A stretch of 64,000 nt of DNA. It comes from Eledone cirrhosa (taxonomy: Eukaryota). Both the position numbers and the translations under genes were made by a program. The stretch spans positions 17,360,001 through 17,424,000 of the forward strand of contig OZ024742.1 in NCBI GenBank assembly GCA_964016885.1, read 5' to 3'. The notes below the pieces were generated by a model. The model was given only the letters and a program-made list of their open reading frames with translations, searched no databases and was not told where the DNA came from. Below, in pieces: positions 10,956 through 63,966 of this stretch; position 1 is the first letter of the stretch; each line of letters begins with the position of its first letter.

Positions 10956-11072
10956 TGTGTACATGCATATGAGCTTAGATTCATACAGATAGGCATAATA
11001 CATACATACGATCATATATGTGTTTGTATACAAACACACGCACACACATATTTAATATATTTAATATATATA

Positions 11073-11703
11073 TAAATGGAAAAAATGAAACGAAATTTCA
11101 TTTCCCACTCTTAGTACGGCTGTTACTTAAATATAAGTATGTACACGTACATACATATATGTATACAGACGTACAGTAGTATGTATATATATATATACAT
11201 ACACGCAGACATATATATATGTACGTATGGATTCACCGAACATTTATTATAATGCTCGGTGTGTTTGTAAATAAACATCCCGTATTAAGCCGTAGTGTCT
11301 AGCAACCATCGTTGCTCGTTTGTTCAACAATGACAAAGGAACGCTGTACTAGTTTCAAGCTTATTAGCTATCGTCACCAACGTATACCTTCCTGCCAGAT
11401 TGTTGAACGTATATACTTACCTTATGCATATTAATCTGGCAGGAAGGTATACGTTGCTGACGATAGCTAATAAGCTTGAAACTAGTACAGCGTTCCTTTG
11501 TCAGTGTTGAACAAACGAGCAAGGATGGTTTCTAGACACTGCGGCTTAATACGGGATGTTTATTTACAAACACACCGAGCATTATAATCAATGTTCGGTG
11601 AATCCATACGTACATATATATATGTATGCATATATGTATATATATATACATACTACTGTACGTATGTATACATATATGTATGTACGTGTACATACTTATA
11701 TTT
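11073..11703. mobile_element. Fold-back Penelope-like non-autonomous element, family A
   Basis: Arms ~11129-11400 and 11434-11702 are near-perfect reverse complements, flanked by TA repeats. Related copies lie at 38301-38895 and 49955-50222. Confidence 0.85.
11452..11492 (+). ncRNA. Minimal type I hammerhead ribozyme (CUGACGA core, GUA site)
   Basis: cgttg-CTGACGA-t-agct-aata-agct-t-GAAA-ctag-TA-cagcg: stem I cgttg/cagcg and palindromic stem III ACTAGT. Confidence 0.85.
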
Positions 11704-11842
11704 ATATATATATATGAATGTATGTATAGTATATTTGGCAATATACCGTATGTTTAATTAAAAACATTTAGAAGACCATACGCGATCAGTTTTAAAGTAG
11801 TGACTATGTCACTTCCCTTTTTTCGACGAAAGAAGGGAGAGA

Positions 11843-14430: not shown

Positions 14431-14516
14431 TATAGGATGTAATTTGAGGGAGATATTAGGGTCATTTCTAACAGGTTGAACGGTGACACGATGGTTGTGT
14501 CACTGGTTTCTATTAA

Positions 14517-14660
14517 AGGTGGAGGCGCGTGGCCTAGTCGTAGGTTCTATTCCTAGGTTGGGTTGTGTGTTATGTTCTTGAGCAAAACACTTCATTTCAC
14601 ATTGCTCCAGTATCCTCAGCTGAAAATGATTTAAACCTGCGATAAACTGGCGTCCTGTTC
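14517..14660 (+). mobile_element. tRNA-derived SINE family 2, 5' part; its 3' part is expanded into the following satellite
   Basis: ggaggcgcgtggcctagt head and ttgagcaaaacacttcatttcacattgctccagt body. Related copies at 18210-18430 (-), 24975-25070, 45820-46070, 50522-50640 and 57985-58118 (-). Confidence 0.75.
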
Positions 14661-15909
14661 TTGTACTCTCAGTGGCGTTATGACACAACAGTGAAGTACT
14701 GGCCTGGTGAGCTGGCGTCCTGTGAAAGATTAGTCTTGTACTCTCAGTGGCGTCATGACACAACAGTGAAGTACTGGCCTGATGAGCTGGCGTCCTGTGA
14801 AAGATTAGTCTTGTACTCTCAGTGGCGTCATGACACAACAGTGAAGTACTGGCCTGATGAGCTGGCGTCCTGTGAAAGATTAGTCTTGTACTCTCAGTGG
14901 CGTCATGACACAACAGTGAAGTACTGGCCTGATGAGCTGGCGTCCTGTGAAAGATTAGTCTTGTACTCTCAGTGGCGTCATGACACAACAGTGAAGTACT
15001 GGCCTGATGAGCTGGCGTCCTGTGAAAGATTAGTCTTGTACTCTCAGTGGCGTCATGACACAACAGTGAAGTACTGGCCTGATGAGCTGGCGTCCTGTGA
15101 AAGATTGGTCTTGTACTCTCAGTGGCGTCATGACACAACAGTGAAGTACTGGCCTGATGAGCTGGCGTCCTGTGAAAGATTAGTGTTGTACTCTCAGTGG
15201 CGTCATGACACAACAGTGAAGTACTGGCCTGATGAGCTGGCGTCCTTTGAAAGATTAGTCTTGTACTCTCAGTGGCGTTATGACACAACAGTGAAGTACT
15301 GGCCTGATGAGCTGGCGTCCTGTGAAAGATTAGTCTTGTACTCTCAGTGGCGTCATGACACAACAGTGAAGTACTGGCCTGATGAGCTGGCGTCCTGTGA
15401 AAGATTAGTCTTGTACTCTCAGTGGCGTCATGACACAACAGTGAAGTACTGGCCTGATGAGCTGGCGTCCTGTGAAAGATTAGTCTTGTACTCTCAGTGG
15501 CGTCATGACACAACAGTGAAGTACTGGCCTGATGAGCTGGCGTCCTGTGAAAGATTAGTCTTGTACTCTCAGTGGCGTTATGACACAACAGTGAAGTACT
15601 GGCCTGATGAGCTGGCGTCCTGTGAAAGATTAGTCTTGTACTCTCAGTGGCGTCATGACACAACAGTGAAGTACTGGCCTGATGAGCTGGCGTCCTGTGA
15701 AAGATTAGTCTTGTACTCTCAGTGGCGTCATGACACAACAGTGAAGTACTGGCCTGATGAGCTGGCGTCCTGTGAAAGATTAGTCTTGTACTCTCAGTGG
15801 CGTTATGACACAACAGTGAAGTACTGGCCTGATGAGCTGGCGTCCTGTGAAAGATTAGTCTTGTACTCTCAGTGGCGTTATGACACAACAGTGAAGTACT
15901 GGCCTGATC
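14661..15909 (+). repeat. 75-bp tandem satellite, about 16.6 near-identical copies
   Basis: ttgtactctc recurs every 75 nt from 14661 to 15861, with no spacers. Confidence 0.97.
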
Positions 15910-16184
15910 AGCCGCTTGCGGCAGATCTTAGACTTAGACTTTCTTTTAAAGGGAACAATTCTACACGAAAAGAGAAAATTAGACTTTGTAACGTTAATTC
16001 TCCTTCCCAAATCGAGAATTGTGTCTACGATGTTATCCTTGTTTATATATTGGTATTTTGTTTGGGTGTCCAGGTTTCTACCAAATGATAGTCGTATGAC
16101 AAAGTTATCGTAAGAGTGGCATAATATTTTATTAGCTTGCGAATCATATCATTTTTGTTGATGATATTTTTTAAGAAATAGTTA

Positions 16185-27127: not shown

Positions 27128-27360
27128 TATATTTATTAAAATAACAGATTAAAGTTTAAGCAAAGAATGTATACAAAGAATGTATACATTCAGAAGATCC
27201 CGTTAAGGGTGAAAGCAGCGATTCTTTGCTTAAACTTTAATCTGTTATTTTAATAAATATTTGCTCTACGGTTCTTATATATTTGATATATATTTTCCTT
27301 ATCGAGCTCTCTTTGGATTTTAGTCTTCAATTTTGTTATTATTACTATTATTATTACTAT
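27128..27360. mobile_element. Fold-back element, family D, with a CAGAAGA hammerhead-like core; copies at 39505-39680, 41955-42072 and 49612-49685
   Basis: Arm 27129-27168 is inverted to 27221-27260. CAGAAGA-T-CCC-gttaa-GGG-T-GAAA lies at 27191-27214. Confidence 0.7.
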
Positions 27361-34012: not shown

Positions 34013-34717
34013 ACTGTCTTAGACATCTCTCTGTTGACGTCTAAAATGCTTTCAAACATTAGCTGGATTAGCAGTATCGGTAGAGCATCGAATATAAGTC
34101 TTTGTGTTATAGAACGTTTTTATGTTCTGCGACCAATCCCTGCTGCTGTCATCATTTCCGTTCATCCTACAGAGGTCGATATAATAAAGTATTTATTAAG
34201 TACTGGAACATATGTAATCGACTTCCCCTTCCTTCAGCTGGACCTGTGCCAAAATTAGAAATCAATATTTGGGCGTCTTCAAAAGCACGAGTAGCAATAA
34301 TATTTTTGCGATGATTCAGTTGAATGCATTTATTCGATTCCTAAAATTATTTCTGCACCTAAAGAAGCAATTATTATCGATAAGTTTTATTCAGGATTTT
34401 TCACTTCTTTCCTTTCTTAATATTTAATATTTTTTAACTGAATAACATCGAAGTTTCTTAATGTAGTTCATCCTCATTGATACATATGCTTTCGTAATAG
34501 ACTTTCTCACGCTTTCCAATTGATATTAACGCATATATGCATACACACATACATGCACACGTGTATACATATGTACGTGCGTGCATACATACATACATAT
34601 ATGCACACATACATGCATATATGCACACACGCATGCATATATGCATAGATGCATACATAGATAGATGCATACATACATAAATACATACATACATGTAGCT
34701 ATATATATATAATATAT

Positions 34718-34905
34718 AATTGTTTCTACGTTTGGCACAAGGCCAGCAATTACCCAGTGCATTACTGGTACTTTATTTTATCGACCCCGTAAGGATGAAA
34801 GGCAAAGTTAACCTCGGCGAGATTTGAACTCAGAATGGCAAGAGCCGTAACTCTATACGTCAAAGCATGGCGTCCGACCCTCTACCGATACTGCCAATCC
34901 ACCGC
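34718..34905 (-). mobile_element. SINE family 1 copy
   Basis: Reverse complement of the full SINE. Confidence 0.88.
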
Positions 34906-35398: not shown

Positions 35399-35480
<82 letters not shown>

Positions 35481-36506
35481 ATGTATATGTGTGTGTATGT
35501 ATATATGTGTGTATGTATATATGTATATATATGTGTATGTATATATGTATGTATATATATATATATATATATATATAACGATATTAAACAAATGAAAACT
35601 ATATTTATAAAACCATATTTATTTCGTTATATATATTTCTGGGATATCATATTAAAAATATGGTATGCCTTTCTCAGACAAAATACAATACATAAGCTGT
35701 TTTATAAATAATTTTGACATACCTTATAATAATGCAACTTCCATTTAAAAAGTTGATTTGGTAGTGAAACTGTTATGACAGTTATATAGAAAGAAAAACG
35801 AAGATGAAAAGAAGAAGATGAAGAGATGTATGTAAATAAAAAAGAAGATGAAGAGATGTATGTAAAGAAAAACAACAGAGCGAGATAGAGAGAGAAGGAG
35901 ATATGGGAGAGAGAAATACATTGAGGAAGTGAAAAAATATAGTAGGCAGCTTTTGGACAGATGATCATCGTATATGTGATAGGTTAAGGAGGGAAGGAAT
36001 ACAGTTAAACTAGCCGACACATAAATCACGTCCAGTGTAGAGGAGAAAAAGAAAGAAAGATGATATATTTAAAATATATTAAAAATATATTATGTCTCAT
36101 CCATTTGAATTATCAATTTTTATGAATTAGGTATTATAATGTAAATATCAGTATTCATGAATGAGACACATATCCATAATGTGTGAAAAAATGACCCCAT
36201 GCTTAGTTTAAAAATTCTTAGGTCTATAAGCAAAATCTGAGATAAAACTTCAAACATAAGTATATATGCATTCTCATGAAAAAAGAAAAAGAGAAAAGAG
36301 AAGGTTATCTCAAATTCAAGTTGATAATTATAGACACACATGTGAACTTACGTGATATGCTCCACAGATTCTTATATTTCATTAAAATCTTCATTGCGTT
36401 ACAAAAGATTTCACCCTACACATATTTACATACATATATATATAGACATACAATATATAAGATATACATTAACATTTAAAGTAACATTCCTGCCTCACTT
36501 GCATGA

Positions 36507-36824
36507 TTATCCTCGACAGAATTTAAACTTCGCTATAATAATCACAAAAATTCTTTCACGGATCCAAATAAAAAATCTTCAACATCGCTGTCAGGCTTAC
36601 TCTGGCAACTTAAACATGATAAAGTTGGATATTCGATGGTTTGGAATATAGTCTCAAAAGGGATTCCTTTTAATTCCTCTTCTGAGACATGTGTCCTCTG
36701 CGCGGAGGAGATATTCTTTATACTAAAATCTAAAAATTCCCTTAATTTACGAACCAATTTATTCAGCTGCTGCAGACATAGATTGAACTCAACTTTTAAA
36801 TATAAATATAAATTTAAAATGTAG
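36507..36824 (+). pseudogene. Penelope-like GIY-YIG endonuclease, C-terminal half (5'-truncated)
   Basis: In-frame translation STEFKLRYNNHKNSFTDPNKKSSTSLSGLLWQLKHDKVGYSMVWNIVSKGIPFNSSSETCVLCAEEIFFILKSKNSLNLRTNLFSCCRHR contains the FKxRYxNH, WxLK, CxLC and CRH signatures. Confidence 0.85.
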
Positions 36825-38047
36825 TATAAAATGTAGTATATTTACTTAAGATATTTAACTATTTATGAAACTTGGCGATAAATCTTTCGATTCATTCAAC
36901 TTTTTTTTAAACCTTTCTGCATGAATATATAATTAATGAGATTAAATAAACTACCCTAAAATTGGCGATGTTCCCAATCTTTTGAATAAATTTTTAAGCT
37001 GGATAAACTTCTATAATAAATATAAGAGCATTTGTAGAATAAGTTTTGAATGATTTCTGCTAAATAAGGTTTGGTGAACAATTTTGGTTTTGTTTGCTTT
37101 TGATTCTGATTTTATGTGACTGATATGCGTGGCATACTATGTTCTCTTGCGTCCCTAGATACTCTGTGGAGTGACGAAGATATTCCTGGCGTTTTTAATT
37201 TTTAATATTGATATCTGTTGTCTATTCTATGCTTGATCGATAATCATGCAAGTGAGGCAGGAATGTTACTTTAAATGTTAATGTATATCTTATATATTGT
37301 ATGTCTATATATATATGTATGTAAATATGTGTAGGGTGGAATCTTTTGTAACGCAATGAAGATTTTAATGAAATATAAGAATCTGTGGAGCATATCACGT
37401 AAGTTCACATGTGTGTCTATAATTATCAACTTGAATTTGAGATAACCTTCTCTTTTCTCTTTTTCTTTTTTCATGAGAATGCATATATACTTATGTTTGA
37501 AGTTTTATCTCAGATTTTGCTTATAGACCTAAGAATTTTTAAACTAAGCATGGGGTCATTTTTTCACACATTCATGAATACTGATATTTACATTATAATA
37601 CCTAATTCATAAAATTTGATAATTCAAATGGATGAGACATAATATATTTTTAATATATTTTAAATATATCATCTTTCTTTCTTTGTCTCCTCTACACTGG
37701 ACGTGATTTATGTGTCGGCTAGTTTAACTGTATCCCTTCCCTCCTTAACCTCTCACATATACGATGATCATCTGTCCAAAAGCTGCCTACTATATTTTTT
37801 CACTTCCTCAATGTATTTCTCTCTCCCATATCTCCTTCTCTCTCTATCTCACTATGTTGTTTTTCTTTACATACATCTCTTCATCTTCTTCTTTTTTATT
37901 TACATACATCTCTTCATCTTCTTCTTTTCATCTTCGTTTTTCTTTCTATATAACTGTCATAAGTTTCACTACCAAATCAACTTTTTAAATGGAAGTTGCA
38001 TTATTATAAGGTATGTCAAAATCATTTATAAAACAGCTTATGTATTG

Positions 38048-38113
38048 TATTTTGTCTGAGGAAGGCATACCATATTTTTAATATGATATCCCAGAAATAT
38101 ATATAACGAAATA
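38048..38113 (+). ncRNA. Type I hammerhead ribozyme (CUGAGGA core, AUA site); the mirror copy at 35620-35685 (-) has CUGAGAA
   Basis: tattttgt-CTGAGGA-[aggcataccatatt..aatatgatatccca]-GAAA-tatata-TA-acgaaata, with an 8-bp stem I. Confidence 0.8.
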
Positions 38114-38300
38114 AATATGGTTTTATAAATATAGTTTCCATTTGTTTAATATCGTAAACCTACTCCAGAAACTGTTGAGTGCTTTTATATCAGTTATAAA
38201 ATATTTACTCGTTGTAACCCAACAATTTTAAATAAAACTTTTGCATATATATATATATATACATATATATGTATGTGTGTGTGTATATATATATATATAT

Positions 38301-38890
38301 ATAAACGGAAAAAATGAAACGAAATTCCATTTCTCACTCTTAGTACGGCTGTTACTTAAATATAAGTATGTATACGTACATACATATATGTATACAGACG
38401 TACAGTAGTATGTATATACATACATGCGCACATATATATATGTACGTATGGATTTACCGAACATTTATTATAATGCTCGGTGTGTTTGTAAACAAACATC
38501 CCGAATTAAGCCGTACAGTGTTTAGCAACCATCGTTGCTCTTTTGTTTAACACTGAAAAAGGAACCATGTACTAGTTTCAAGCTTATTAGCTATCGTCAG
38601 CACCATATACCTTCCTGCCAGATGATTGAACGTCTGAAAGTATGTACTTTCCTTATGCATATTAACGGCTTGAAACTAGTACATCGTTCCTTTGTCAGTG
38701 TTGAACAAAAGAGCAACGATGGTTGCTAGACACTGTATGGCTTAATTCGGGATGTTTGTATAAACACACCGAGCATTATAATAAATGTTCGGTAAATCCA
38801 TACGTACATATATTTATGTGTGCATGTATGTATATATATATACATACTACTGTACGTCTGTATACATATATGTATGTACGTATACATACT

Positions 38891-38895
<5 letters not shown>
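38301..38895. mobile_element. Fold-back copy of family A, with an intact hammerhead core on the minus strand at 38565-38606
   Basis: Homologous to 11073-11703 but with a different inversion junction (right arm starts ~38668). Confidence 0.85.
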
Positions 38896-38922
<27 letters not shown>

Positions 38923-40244: not shown

Positions 40245-40438
40245 TGTATTGGCAGTATAGGTAGAGGGTCGGATGCCATGCTTTGCAGGATCAAGTTACG
40301 GCCCTTGACGGTCTGAACTGAATTCAAATCTCTCCGAGGTTAACTTTGCTTTTCTTCCTTACGGGGTCGATAAAATAAAGTACCAGTAATGCACTGGAGT
40401 AATTGCTGGCCTTGTGCCAAAAAGTAGAAACAATTATA
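40245..40438 (+). mobile_element. SINE family 1 copy
   Basis: Head, core and tail motifs. Confidence 0.85.
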
Positions 40439-41359
40439 ATCACGTATACCAACTTTTAGCAGTTGTCAACTCTTGCATCACTCACTGTAGCCCCCATCGC
40501 ACTCATTCACCCCATCCATCCGGGGTCAGACCGAAGCAAACAGAGCACAATAATAGGTTAATATAGGACTAAAATTAGGAAACTATATACTAATATATAA
40601 CCCTAAACTAGGATTTCCTCTTAAACTCCAAAACTGCTTAATAAAATGAAATAAAGAAGAGAATATATGTGAATCTATTTATCTGTTAAACGGTCCATTT
40701 ACAGTAAATACATAAAAATAGATAAGTAGATAAGTGTTGATGTTCTTTCTCTTTCACTCACTGCCTCCGTCTCTTTCACTCTCCCTACCTCTCTCTTTCA
40801 CTCACTGCCTCCGTCTCTCTCACTCTCCCCATCTCACACTATTATATGTAAGTGGGAACCCATGCTCTGGCTGCCCCGTGGGTACGACAGACAGAATAGC
40901 GAAGGCATTTTCCCCCCAAAGATGGTGGAGGGAGGACGCTTTGGAAGAGCCATTCCAGCTCACGATGCTCACACCTGTGGGTAGCCAACTCTGTGCTGAT
41001 TTTGGTGCATAGGCAGGTGCTTCTAAGGCCAAAACCACCAGAGGTCTCCACTGATACGAGCTCGACAGCAAACCTGTCAGAGAGCGACTGATATTTGGAG
41101 GGTTCGCCCCGCTCGACCCGAAATGCAAGTGGTTCACTATCCATGCAGTTAACTGGTAGAATAAATGGCTAAGAGATGTATTACTTTACGAATCTAATTG
41201 GAGCGGTTTTCACCAACTTGTCTACTCGCAGTTATAGTCCGAACTTAAAACAACCACACGACTAGCTGCGGAGCTGGGTCCCTGGATTTTACAGGATGAG
41301 GATACTATTAGAGAGAGGTGGAGTGAGAGGGGGGAGGGGTGGTGTGAGAGGATGAGGGA

Positions 41360-47702: not shown

Positions 47703-48174
47703 TATATAGATATATAAGGTTGTGTTGAAAAGTTATTAAATTTGATATTGTATGTTATATAATATCATATACGAAAATAAACAGCAACAAAATTTGTAGA
47801 TTTGTTCTCTACGGAATATCTTGCGTCTGAAATATTTCATCACTCCAATTATGTTTTTGGATGTTTCTTTAGATTGTGAGTCTTGACGTATTCAACTGTG
47901 TCATTCTCGAATGTCTCGAAGTTTTTGTTGTTTATCCTCAGGTCAGAAGTCAGGCCTTAACTGTATAACTGCTTATTCCTAACCCATTCATACGTCATAC
48001 AACAGGCAGTCTCAGTATTATGAAAATCATAAAATAAAATAGTATTCGTGAGTTTTATATCAAATAGTAATATTCAATTCGTTTGAACAAAAGGATGGCG
48101 ATATTCATCTAAAACCCACACCGTAATGAAGTTGTTTGATTGCAAACGAATCAGATATTATTATTGGCTATAAA

Positions 48175-48556
48175 AGGGCGGTGGATTGGCAGTATCGGTA
48201 GAGGGTCGGACGCCATGCTTTCCAGCATGGTTACGTCCCTTTACGATCTGAGTTCAAATCCCGCCGAGGTTGACTTTGCCTTTCATCCTTACGGGGTCGA
48301 TAAAATAAAGTACCAGTAATGCACTGGGTAATTGCTGGCCTTGTGCCTAAAGTAGAAACAATTATTGGCTATAAAAGGGCGGTGGATTGGCCGTATCGGT
48401 AGACGGTCCGACGCCATGCTTTGCAGCATAGAATTACTGCCCTTTAAATCCCGCCGAGGTTAAATTTGCCTTTCATCCTTACGGGGTCGATGAAATAAAG
48501 TACCAGTAATATACTGAGGTAATTGCTGGCCTTGTGCCAAAAGTAGAAATAATTAT
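48175..48556 (+). mobile_element. Head-to-tail dimer of SINE family 1
   Basis: Two copies, each preceded by attattggctataaaagggc. Confidence 0.9.
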
Positions 48557-49045
48557 GATGGAGTTAAGGAAGAAAAAGTGAAAGTATTGAAAAAGAAAAG
48601 AAAACTGTTTTTTTTTTCATGTCGGTTTAACTCGCACGAACCGCGAATGATGAGGTGCTAATTAGTTAATTTTAACGGGATTTTAATGGATAGGTTGTAA
48701 TATCAGGTGATTTAACATTAGACATCGTTGAAAAAGATGTTTTTAACCATACTAAACTTTCAAAATTATTGTCAAATTTGGCGAAATTTCTTTAACCTGA
48801 TTATTGCGGGGAGATCTACTTTATTCAGAGTACATCATTACACTACTTATATATAATAGATCATCTGCGTAATTGCATGACTAACGAAAAAGAGTTGCCG
48901 AATTTGTCTTTAAATGATGATAGTCTAGCATCTTAAATACAATAGTGTCTAAAGGTAAAGTATTTCAAATAAACATCATGATATGCTTTTACGGTGTATG
49001 AATTTCTGGAATTTATATGTGCAAACACGAACATATATGTATATA

Positions 49046-49614: not shown

Positions 49615-50224
49615 TTATTAAAATAACAGATTAAAGTTTAAGCAAAGAATCGCTGTTTTGACCCTTAACGTGATCTTCTGAAACTAACAAAGTCAATCTG
49701 TAAACGCAGAAGTGGATATTTCAAAAAACGTTGCAACCGGAGGAAGACAAGAAGACGATACTTTGGTTCGTGGAAACGTTCGCTGGCAAAGAACGGGAAA
49801 AAACGGATATAATACGTCATTATTTGGGGCGGTGAAAAACAAGCAAAGACAAACCAGGTCTATGGTATAAAAGAAGTCGTAGACTAATGTTCTCTTAGGC
49901 GGTTCATAGAGATGTTCTCTGACAATGAACGGAAAAAACGAAGATAATACGTCATGTGTACAGCGTTCCTTTGTCAGTGTTGAACAAACGAGCAACGATG
50001 GTTGCTAGACTCTACGGCTTAATACGGGATGTTTGTTTACAAACACACCGAGCATTATAATAAATGTTCGGTGAATCCATACGTACATATATATATATAT
50101 ATGTGTGTGCATGTATGTATATATATATATATACATATATGAATGTACGGATACATACTTATATTTATGTAACAGCCGTACTAAGAGTGGGAAATGAAAT
50201 TTCGTTTCATTTTTTCCGTTTATG

Positions 50225-50390
<166 letters not shown>

Positions 50391-53677: not shown

Positions 53678-53699
53678 TTTGGCAGCAGCTATAATAATG

Positions 53700-54500
53700 A
53701 TTACTAGTATAGGCACAAGGCCAACAATTTGAGGGGGTCGGGAAAAGTTGATTAAATCGACCCCAGTGGATTAATGGCACTTTATTTTATTGACACCAGA
53801 AGGATGAAAGGCAAAGTTAACCTCGACGGTATTTGAACTCAGACCATGAAAGGCCGTAACTCTATGCTGCAAAGCATAGCGTCCGACCCTCTACCGATAC
53901 TGCCAATCCACCACCCTATAATAATTGTTTCTACTTTTGGCACAAGGCCAGCAATTATCCCAGTGCGTAACTGGTACTTTATTTTATCGACCTCGTAAAT
54001 ATGAAAGGCAAAGTTAACCTCAGCGGGACTTGAACTCATACCATAAAGGGCCGTAACTCTTTGCTGAAAAGCATGGCGTCCGACCCTCTACGGATACTGT
54101 CAATTCACCGCCCTATAATAATTGTTTCTAATTTTGGCACAAGGCCAGCAATTGACCAGTACATTACTGGTACTTTATTTTAACGACCTCGTAAGTATGA
54201 AAGGCAGAGTTAACCTCGGCAGGATTTGAACTCAGATCGTAAAGGAATGTAACTATGCTGGAAAACATGTCCGACCCTCTACCAAATGATTTCTAGTATA
54301 AGCACAAGGCCAACAATTTGAGGGGTGGGGAAAAGTTGATTAAATCGACCCCAGTGGATTACTGGTTCTTTATTTTATCGACACCAGAAGGATGAAAGGC
54401 AAAGTTGAGTTTGATTGGATTTGAAATCAGAATGTAGAAAGTCATAACTAAATACTGCAAAACACTTTGTTCGACGCTCTACCGATTCTGACTATACACC
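53700..54500 (-). mobile_element. Four head-to-tail copies of SINE family 1
   Basis: Tail ggcacaaggcc at ~53712, 53939, 54136 and 54301, each followed by the reversed core and head. Confidence 0.88.
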
Positions 54501-55517: not shown

Positions 55518-55700
55518 ATTGTTTCTACTTTTGGCACAAGGCCAGCAAATACCCAGTACATTACTGGTACTTTATTTTATCGACCCCGTAAGGATGAAAG
55601 GAAAAGTTAACCTCGACGGGATTTGAACTCAGATCGTAAAGGGACGTAACTATGCTGGAAAGCATGCGTCCGACTCTCTACTGATACTGGCAATCCACCG
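55517..55700 (-). mobile_element. SINE family 1 copy
   Basis: Reverse complement of the full SINE. Confidence 0.88.
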
Positions 55701-56345
55701 ATCAAAAGATGGTTAAAAGAGTTCCAAGTATTTTATTATGCGCATTTCAAAAACAAATATCATCACGAGATGATATCTGCGTTTTCATCAGATAAAATAG
55801 GGATACATGATATGAAGGTTAAAAAACACTTGTGAATAGTGAAGTTTTAAATCAACATATCTTATATTATTTATACTCCAGTCCTACAAATTGTAGAGTG
55901 CTACTTATACAATATTTGCATTGCTTTATTGTGCTACAATAAAACTCACCTTCTATATATCTATATATATATATATATACATTATGAAGAGAGAAGAAAC
56001 ATTTAGATATAATTAGTAATAAAATGTATCATACCTAAACTGCTCCTAAATTCCTCGACTACGTAGTTTCGTGGCATAAACAAAAACAATATATCATAAA
56101 GATATAGAGTCCCTGCGAGGTCTGCCGACTTATCAAGAGGATACCTCATTTTACTAGTCTCAAGAACGCGTCTACACGACGTGAGAAAGAATCCCAAAAG
56201 GCGGAGGGGGAGATAGTCACGCGATATAACGGTCGAGAAACAGAGCTAAGCCTCTTATAACCACGAAGAAAATACCACGGAGGCGGAGGGGGTATTCATA
56301 TCGAGGCCGCAGAATATATATATATATATTACAACCCTATATATA

Positions 56346-61507: not shown

Positions 61508-61707
61508 NNNNNNNNNNNNNNNNNNNNNNNNNNNNNNNNNNNNNNNNNNNNNNNNNNNNNNNNNNNNNNNNNNNNNNNNNNNNNNNNNNNNNNNNNNNNN
61601 NNNNNNNNNNNNNNNNNNNNNNNNNNNNNNNNNNNNNNNNNNNNNNNNNNNNNNNNNNNNNNNNNNNNNNNNNNNNNNNNNNNNNNNNNNNNNNNNNNNN
61701 NNNNNNN
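61508..61707. other. Assembly gap (200 N)
   Basis: Run of N. Confidence 1.
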
Positions 61708-63966
61708 TCTCCCCATCTCTCTCTTTCCCTCACTGCCTCCGTCTCTCTCTTTCCCACACTGCCTCCGTCTCTCTCGCTCTCCCCATCTCTCTCTTTCCCT
61801 CACTGCCTCCGTCTCTCTCTTTCACTCACTGCCTCCGTCTCTCTCGCTCTCCCCACCTTTCTCTTTGACTCACTGCCTCCATCTCTCTCGCTCTCCCCAT
61901 CTCTCTCTTTCACTCACTGCCTCCGTCTCTCTCGCTCTCCCACCTCTCTCTTTCACTCACTGCTTCCGTGTCTCTCGCTCTCCCCACCTCTCTCTTTCAC
62001 TCACTGCCTCCGTCTCTCTTTCTCTTCCCATCTCTCTCTTTCACTCACTGCCTCCGTCTCTCTTTCTCTCCCCATCTCTCTCTTTCACTCACTACCTCCG
62101 TCTCTCTTGCTCTCCCCACTTCTCTCTTTCACTCACTGCCTCCATCTCTCTTTCTCTCCCCATCTCTCTCTTTCACTCACTGCCTCCGTCTCTCTTGCTC
62201 TCCCCATCTCTCTCTTTCACTCACTGCCTCCGTCTCTCTTGCCCCCCCCCATCTCTCTCTTTCACTCACTGCCTCCGTCTCTCTTTCTCTCCCCATCTCT
62301 CTCTTTCACTCACTGCCTCCGTCTCTCTTTCTCTCCCCATCTCTCTCTTTCACTCACTGCCTCCGTCTCTCTTGCTCTCCCCATCTCTCTCTTTCACTCA
62401 CTGCCTCCGTCTCTCTTGCTCTCCCCATCTCTCTCTTTCACTCACTGCCTCCGTCTCTCTTTCTCTCCCCATCTCTCTCTTTCACTCACTGCCTCCGTCT
62501 CTCTCGCTCTCCCCACCTCTCTCTTTCACTCACTGCCTCCATCTCTCTCGCTCTCCCCACTTCTCTCTTTCACTCACTGCCTCCGTCTCTCTTGATCTCC
62601 CCACCTCTCTCTTTCACTCACTGCCTCCGTCTCTCTCGCTCTCCCCATCTCTCTCTTTCCCTCACTGCCTCCGTCTCTCTTGCTCTCCCCACCTCCCTCT
62701 TTCACTAACTGCCTCCGTCTCTCTTTCTCTCCCCATCTCTCTCTTTCACTCACTGCCTCCGTCTCTCTTGCTCTCCCCATCTCTCTCTTTCACTCACTGT
62801 CTCCGTCTCTCTCGCTCTCCCACCTCTCTCTTTCACTCACTGCCTCCGTGTCTCTCGCTCTCCCCACCTCTCTCTTTCACTCACTGCCTCCGTCTCTCTC
62901 GCTCTCCCCACCTCTCTCTTTCACTCACTGCCTCCATCTCTCTCGCTCTCCCCACTTCTCTCTTTCACTCACTGCCTCCGTCTCTCTTGATCTCCCCACC
63001 TCTCTCTTTCACTCACTGCCTCCGTCTCTCTCGCTCTCCCCATCTCTCTCTTTCCCTCACTGCCTCCGTCTCTCTCTTTCACTCACTGTCTCCGTCTCTC
63101 TTGCTCTCCCCATCTCTCTCTTTCACTCACTGCCTCCGTCTCACTTGCTCTCCCCACCTCCCTCTTTCACTAACTGCCTCCGTCTCTCTTTCTCTCCCCA
63201 TCTGTCTCTTTCACTCACTGCCTCCGTCTCTCTTTCTCTCCCCATCTCTCTCTTTCACTCACTGCCTCCGTCTCTCTTGCTCTCCCCATCTCTCTCTTTC
63301 ACTCACTGCCTCCGTCTCTCTTGCTCTCCCCATCTCTCTCTTTCACTCACTGCCTCCGTCTCTCTTTCTCTCTCCATCTCTCTCTTTCACTCACTGCCTC
63401 CGTCTCTCTTTCTCTCCCCATCTCTCTCTTTCACTCACTACCTCCGTCTCTCTTGCTCTCCCCACTTCTCTCTTTCACTCACTGCCTCCGTCTCTCTTTC
63501 TCTCCCCATCTCTCTCTTTCACTCACTGCCTCCGTCTCTCTTGCTCTCCCCATCTCTCTCTTTCACTCACTGCCTCCGTCTCTCTTCCCCCCCCCCCATC
63601 TCTCTCTTTCACTCACTGCCTCCGTCTCTCTTGCCCCCCCCCATCTCTCTCTTTCACTCACTGCCTCCGTCTCTCTTGCCCCCCCCCCCCCCATCTCTCT
63701 CTTTCACTCACTGCCTCCGTCTCTCTTTCTCTCCCCATCTCTCTCTTTCACTCACTGCCTCCGTCTCTCTTGCTCTCCCCATCTCTCTCTTTCACTCACT
63801 GCCTCCGTCTCTCTTGCCCCCCCCCCCATCTCTCTCTTTCACTCACTGCCTCCGTCTCTCTTGCCCCCCCCCCCCCATCTCTCTCTTTCACTCACTGCCT
63901 CCGTCTCTCTTGCTCTCCCCATCTCTCTCTTTCACTCACTGCCTCCGTCTCTCTTGCTCTCCCCAC
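61708..63966. repeat. 42-44 bp pyrimidine-rich satellite, roughly 50 copies
   Basis: Unit cactcactgcctccgtctctcttkctctccccatctctctcttt. Confidence 0.96.

Follow-up and report, generated by a model that had tools for sequence, protein, structure and literature searches.

The window analysed here, a 64,000-nt stretch of the Eledone cirrhosa genome, contains an insertion whose family offers a sharp test of how Penelope-like elements, a lineage sister to telomerase, come to insert as inverted copies with a tail on one side only. Inverted 5′ copies with a one-sided tail have been described for Penelope-like elements (PMC8557442; PMC3846280), and the window locus is almost certainly a dead, 5′-truncated, head-to-head insertion of one such retroelement, of the Hydra clade, into (TA)n (Table 1).

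Architecture and identity of the window locus

An inverted upstream duplicate of ~930 bp had been noted by a sequence-only reading of the window, and alignment confirms that 35578-36511 is the reverse complement of 37239-38155; the scattered substitutions and small indels reported between the arms come to 10 substitutions and 3 indels (18, 3 and 2 nt) in 914 aligned nt. Substitution density is uneven along the arms, with 1 in 330 nt and 9 in 584 nt. Compared with other copies of the family, each arm carries five derived substitutions, nearly all of them private, so that the arms probably did not differ when they inserted; they have no rare variant in common. At 0.55% per arm the locus is roughly 1.5 My old, on a calibration from another species (0.09 equal to 25 My, as quoted in the accessible text of PMC13282606). 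The endonuclease frame described earlier as open from 36507 and cut off at a junction near 36511 is indeed open from 36507 to 36824 (105 aa, without a start codon) and is interrupted where the arms share one base at 36511. Codons 1-2 derive from the inverted arm and the junction, and residues 3-105 correspond to the last 103 aa of the intact protein. Both GIY and YIG map upstream of the junction and are therefore missing from the window copy, which has no reverse transcriptase (RT) and no start codon. Loose ends of contigs from this family also break at 36511 (four runs; contigs too short to span the junction). The 3′ region, put previously at ~1.4 kb with a hammerhead near its end, measures 1,421 nt (36825-38245), holds the hammerhead at 38048-38113 and runs into (TA)n, as does the end of the left arm.

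Table 1 Features of the window locus (positions are those of the window)
Positions	Strand	Feature	Basis or remark
35403..35577	.	(TA)n/(TG)n microsatellite, left flank, likely target	Sequence; no readable target-site duplication
35578..36511	-	Inverted, 5′-truncated 3′ UTR copy; stops at the short end point, without tail	Arm alignment
35620..35685	-	Second hammerhead copy, G8-to-A at 35672, likely inactive	G in 64/64 other copies
36511..36511	.	Head-to-head junction, one shared base	Arm alignment
36512..36824	+	C-terminal 103 codons of Hydra-type GIY-YIG endonuclease (R..H, CxxC, E, N, CxH)	Sequence
36825..38154	+	Long AT-rich 3′ UTR / pseudo-LTR; 37239-38155 is the part duplicated upstream	Sequence
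38048..38113	+	Type I hammerhead, palindromic stem III, predicted cut after 38105	Pattern
38155..38245	+	91-nt tail between short (38154/5) and long (38245) end points; on right arm only	
38162..38183	+	Bulged hairpin 1 (RCTC-stem-loop-TT-GAGY-RCT), 7 nt past the short end point	
38246..38302	.	(TA)n/(TG)n microsatellite, right flank	Sequence

The hammerhead is predicted from sequence, with stem I at 38048-38055/38106-38113, core segments at 38056-38062 and 38094-38097, and the layout of the entries in file S2 of Craig et al. Its pattern occurs in 0 of 2,000 shuffles of the 3′ region, and the outer pair of stem I varies among copies as G-C, G-U or A-U. An Rfam search did not report the hammerhead (its miRNA matches are microsatellite noise), nor is the hammerhead the minimum-energy fold in free folding. 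G8, the position altered in the left-arm copy, is essential to hammerheads (PMC11167929). At the base of stem II (38063 and 38093), the young subfamily has A-A and older copies have A-U, a change that may reflect weakening of the ribozyme during expansion of the family.

Of 52,569 candidates found with the 105-aa peptide in the E. cirrhosa genome (3.0 Gb), 150 are scored matches, with 94-100% identity. Twenty loci were picked for long frames or pairing, including the near-intact copy L022, in which a short inverted end, a pseudo-LTR of 1,087 nt and a leader of 49 nt precede a 741-aa ORF, and a 3′ region of the window type follows it. The pseudo-LTRs of L022 differ at 9 of 1,087 nt, and tandem arrangements occur in L022, L032 and L036 (partial tandem pseudo-LTR). 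The single ORF of L022 encodes an RT followed by a C-terminal GIY-YIG endonuclease (YRDD at 354, NIIY at 618, YVG at 634, R645, H649, E and N). The earlier view of the window locus as a young 5′-truncated insertion of an autonomous Penelope-like element with a GIY-YIG enzyme is upheld. The protein contains RIRWR at 35-39, with R for K relative to the RWK of most aligned homologues, and no GxK[FY]; DKT at 120, a modified DKG; a CxCx5C linker at 600-608; and CxxC (698-701) and CxH (725-727) flanking the conserved E and N. CCHH is absent, and no cysteine pair lies between GIY and YIG. Judged by these motifs, the family belongs to the Hydra clade, since this intact sibling carries every motif published for it: domain order, RW[K/R], DKT, CxCx5C, CxxC and CxH around E and N, lack of CCHH, a canonical hammerhead and a (TA)n target all agree with the clade as described for members such as Hydra-1_Obim and Penelope-13_HM (PMC8557442). 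The unit length of 3,724 nt, owing to the long 3′ UTR, departs from the accessible description of Hydra elements as generally shorter than 3 kb, which is a tendency and no diagnostic in that source (PMC8557442); the family also differs from the published members in its 1.4-kb 3′ region, its 91-nt tail (30-40 bp in theirs) and its thousands of copies. The distance from stop codon to hammerhead is 1,231 nt, compared with a median of 146 nt (range 46-515) in 44 matches from relatives.

An AlphaFold model of the 741-aa protein (pLDDT 86) has telomerase RTs as its top two Foldseek matches. Pfam returned no match for the 105-aa piece or the 741-aa protein, with RVT_1 found in 1 of 21 aligned members, and the family protein has no sequence match in the PDB. 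Two of the 52 homologues found are labelled Argonauta hians, and a quick tree (without named outgroups) places the family with these two proteins. By eye, the family seems distinct from Hydra-1_Obim, with another N-terminus and another hammerhead. What is new at the locus is the family; its clade and its arrangement are both known. Exact patterns matched 5,211 pre-tail ends, 2,567 tail ends and 28 leaders genome-wide, counts that put the family at about 2,600 or more insertions, few of them full-length, and 108 of 118 standard ends are followed by a TA-type repeat. Within the ORF, a C-run (WFAPPF; L022:5146-5162 and siblings) is 6 C long, and in frame, in 14 of 39 copies and 9-16 C long in 18, which accounts for many open frames of ~224 aa; it is either a slippage hotspot or a sequencing bias.

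Resemblance to Naiad, suggested by the sequence-only reading from the tail of the peptide, gave way to the Hydra assignment. Naiads do share (TA)n preference, high copy number, inverted 5′ copies and tandem and inverted arrangements with the window family, but are described as having an N-terminal endonuclease with CCHH, DKA and no canonical hammerhead (PMC8557442), none of which applies here: the domain order of L022 and L023 places the endonuclease at the C-terminus, with DKT, no CCHH and a hammerhead. The proposed check of full-length copies for in-frame TGA found none at cysteines, and the frames of L022 and L023 are open without TGA, which led us to reject a selenoprotein element; TGA occurs in 3 of the 150 peptide matches, at a Trp codon in the two inspected. 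An assembly fold-back artefact or chimera was also rejected, as it would not show arms differing at 13 places with five derived substitutions on each side. We regard the chance that the locus is any of these three, a Naiad, a selenoprotein element or an artefact, as negligible.

Two end points and one tail per pair

To describe how copies end, we fetched 60 of the 68 loci that hold the first 100 matches listed for a pattern upstream of both ends. Among these 60 loci, copies end at the window equivalent of 38154/5 (56 ends) or 38245 (62 ends), 91 nt apart, and elsewhere in six cases. The loci, a few of which duplicate each other, contain 50 head-to-head pairs; after six with an irregular end were set aside, exactly one tail was present in 43 of 44 pairs among the matches listed. 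The same was true of 15 of 15 pairs from the long-ORF loci (2 of 17 set aside), and in both sets together 58 of 59 pairs use one end of each kind. The single pair with two tails is L112. Genome-wide totals of 2,567 tail ends against 5,211 pre-tail ends agree with one tail per pair.

The duplicated part of the window element had been taken for an unusually long terminal repeat. It marks a mere truncation point: among 41 pairs, duplicated lengths reach 2,574 nt and exceed the 934-nt arm of the window in four, and Penelope-13_HM also has an inverted 5′ copy, of 966 nt (PMC8557442). A 5′-truncation hotspot lies at ~37960-37990, about 60-80 nt upstream of the hammerhead, where many fold-backs of ~445 nt end with differing junctions.

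Arms of one pair resemble each other closely. In 72 of 72 pairs, the two arms differ less from each other than from the median other copy, and in 27 they have a rare variant in common; gene conversion after insertion would likewise make arms alike and could contribute. One RNA molecule or two would give similar arms as long as both came from the same source locus, and two RNAs, each primed once, would relieve a trailing RT of the need to displace or overtake a leading one. Independent choice of site, however, predicts about half one-tail pairs where 58 of 59 were seen, so that two RNAs would need an asymmetric protein complex to ensure one tail per pair, whereas one RNA with one hairpin per site (described below) explains the pattern without an added rule. 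We consider the use of two RNAs very unlikely.

The relative length of the arms bears on whether one was copied from the other. Across the 41 pairs, the short-end arm is longer in 15, the tailed arm in 13 and neither in 13; because either arm can be longer, one is not simply a copy of the other. Adineta vaga Penelope, which has in common with the window family an inverted pseudo-LTR, a tail on one end and, in Pen1, a long spacer before the 3′ repeat, differs in its 31-bp tail, and this arrangement was explained by self-priming on an antisense template (PMC3846280). Snap-back self-priming of this kind, or second-strand synthesis on the first cDNA or an antisense template, would fit the 13 of 41 pairs whose arms stop within 15 nt of the same point; hairpins near the end points would then serve as stop, promoter or translation elements, a role suited to the second of them, which sits 15-30 nt before the start codon. 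In the 15 pairs in which the tail-less arm reaches further 5′ and the tail is found only on the other arm, however, neither arm is a copy, and the arms of L111 do not overlap at all. Copying of one arm from the other is, in our view, improbable.

Twin hairpins and candidate start sites

Each end point is closely followed by a copy of the same bulged hairpin (RCTC...GAGYRCT), with A-U and G-C swapped at the base between the two. Hairpin 1 lies in the tail (Table 1). Hairpin 2, located 8 nt past the long end point, is part of the 5′ leader in full-length copies and is missing from the window copy. On this arrangement we favour, with some confidence, a reading in which the start site at each end point would be set by its own hairpin and the two arms would arise from two priming events on one source RNA.

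The motif is also present in distant relatives. Among 78 metagenomic relatives, 55 with a match reaching the N-terminus were tested and three with <90 nt upstream were dropped, leaving 52; the motif lies within 200 nt upstream of the ORF start in 37 of these, compared with 2 of 52 on the reverse strand and 1 of 260 control windows within ORFs. Of 50 hammerheads, 37 have the motif downstream (20 of them two copies) and none has it upstream. The spacing of the hairpins is 55-79 nt in 29 pairs and 91 nt in the window family. When hairpins were selected on the lower stem only, the three pairs of the upper stem formed in 76, 54 and 53 of 77, against shuffle means of 57, 31 and 32 (0 of 2,000 shuffles), an excess confined to the register with a 2-nt bulge; with one hairpin per cluster, pairing was 38 of 54 against 22 (27 of 51 clusters have the motif). 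The strict motif is absent from 24 of 51 clusters, many but not all of them truncated. Single hairpins are no more stable than shuffles (z about -0.5 and -0.1). Copies of other families also end near the motif, with 11 of 13 ends lying 2-12 nt before a hairpin in a test that could see about -35 to +23. With wider references, most other breaks proved to be divergence between families, and two own-locus breaks, at -65 and -86, misfit.

Folding leaves RNA and cDNA weakly resolved, as G-U exceeds A-C only 11 to 4 in the hairpin, and this evidence barely separates RNA from single-stranded DNA. The hairpins might thus act as DNA, the endonuclease recognizing them in cDNA or a donor copy and cutting just upstream while it resolves an intermediate, which would create the two end points; Craig et al. 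explain the tail by endonuclease-mediated resolution (PMC8557442), and the Drosophila virilis endonuclease needed tail sequence for recognition, as cited in PMC11167929. Against this, a loop that ranges from 8 to 19 nt while the upper stem stays paired misfits a double-stranded site, and tail boundaries are RT start sites on RNA in the Poseidon assay (PMC11167929). We regard action as DNA as rather unlikely and return to priming on RNA.

Reverse transcription by the Poseidon RT begins, in that assay, at two internal positions bounding the tail; the enzyme extends both nicked strands, and RNA 3′ of the start positions is required (PMC11167929). We propose that Hydra-clade elements may carry paired RNA anchors of identical fold, each placing one RT near an AU-rich priming site, and that one RNA would be copied twice from opposite nicked strands to yield mirror-image insertions with a one-sided tail; we give this scheme an even chance. 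In the window family, the endonuclease would nick both (TA)n strands. One RT would bind each hairpin, and the AU-rich bases immediately on the 5′ side of that hairpin would be where one 3′-OH primes. Both RTs would copy the single source RNA towards its 5′ end and stop early, and in most cases the two cDNA ends would be joined with 0-2 nt of microhomology. The long start would need a read-through tandem RNA or a hammerhead-cut circle, since hairpin 2 lies in the leader of the next unit. Consistent with this need, the long end precedes every leader seen (10 of 10 matches, some from the same locus).

The closest mechanistic parallel is PAc, a Poseidon element of Anolis carolinensis (Frangieh et al. 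2024, PMC11167929), with which the scheme has in common two internal RT start sites bounding a tail, cutting and extension of both strands, an AT-rich target and a requirement for RNA 3′ of the start sites; a dimer is predicted for PAc and would be hypothetical in the window family. The PAc start sites lie inside the start of the ORF, 30-40 nt apart, in an AC-rich stem-loop without target homology (PMC11167929), whereas the end points of the window family precede the ORF and are separated by 91 nt; each is accompanied by one of the repeated hairpins, and the AU-rich bases at these points could pair with (TA)n. PAc is described as having no strand preference (PMC11167929).

In the supplement of Craig et al. 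(PMC8557442), four of six occurrences of the 3′ half of the hairpin fall in six Hydra consensus sequences and the other two in one Naiad and one Chlamys sequence, and line breaks may hide others. Twin hairpins are visible by eye in the Hydra consensus sequences, with no description found in the accessible text of that paper. No description of the hairpin was found in openly accessible full-text literature or in Rfam. If the proposal is true, the hairpin would give Penelope-like elements their first defined cis-acting start signal, and double priming would be a mode distinct from LINE twin priming. The hairpin is short, covaries, occurs twice and keeps a fixed distance to each end point; it can be mutated directly in the in vitro assay already published, and L022 and other young, near-intact copies exist. 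The motif could also help annotate short unclassified repeats, because it tags 22,421 sites in the E. cirrhosa genome against 377 for a reversed control. Among the 25 matches listed first, the pattern used found a hammerhead core within 150 nt of 10 and none within that distance of 15; a Hydra ORF accompanies 4, and an inverted repeat stops 0-5 nt before the hairpin in 6.

Neighbouring repeats

A link between the element and the other fold-backs of the window, proposed by the sequence-only reading, holds in part. The window family itself produces many fold-backs of 150-800 nt, and the repeat at 55522-55961 is a head-to-head stub of a second Hydra family, whose full ORF is found in L221 and L233 and is 55-56% identical to that of L022. 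The remaining fold-backs belong to other families, and within the 64-kb window none has DNA in common with the element at 35578-38245. One fold-back family (38303-38898, 11048-11704 and 49958-50279) combines a Hydra-like hammerhead with a tail that is present on one side only and lacks the strict hairpin; a search for its parent ORF found a Hydra-type RT piece near 1 of 30 loci, and an apparent tandem proved to be a segmental repeat. Long-loop versions of the hairpin occur in the tails of other fold-back families (window positions 27263, 39592, 42443, 51829 and 33580), 2-10 nt past the short end where the arm is comparable. Outside the window, L034:52-1260 and L038:8451-9901 belong to a third Hydra family, in which the hammerhead core is variant; they lie beside copies of the window family, nested in the same (TA)n tracts. 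The window also contains a 75-nt tandem repeat of near-identical units (14509-16008), a 44-nt pyrimidine-rich minisatellite (61674-63700) and a dispersed repeat of ~190 nt with many copies on both strands (34711-34905, 40245-40440, 48169-48559 and 53690-54500), which is probably a SINE-like element.
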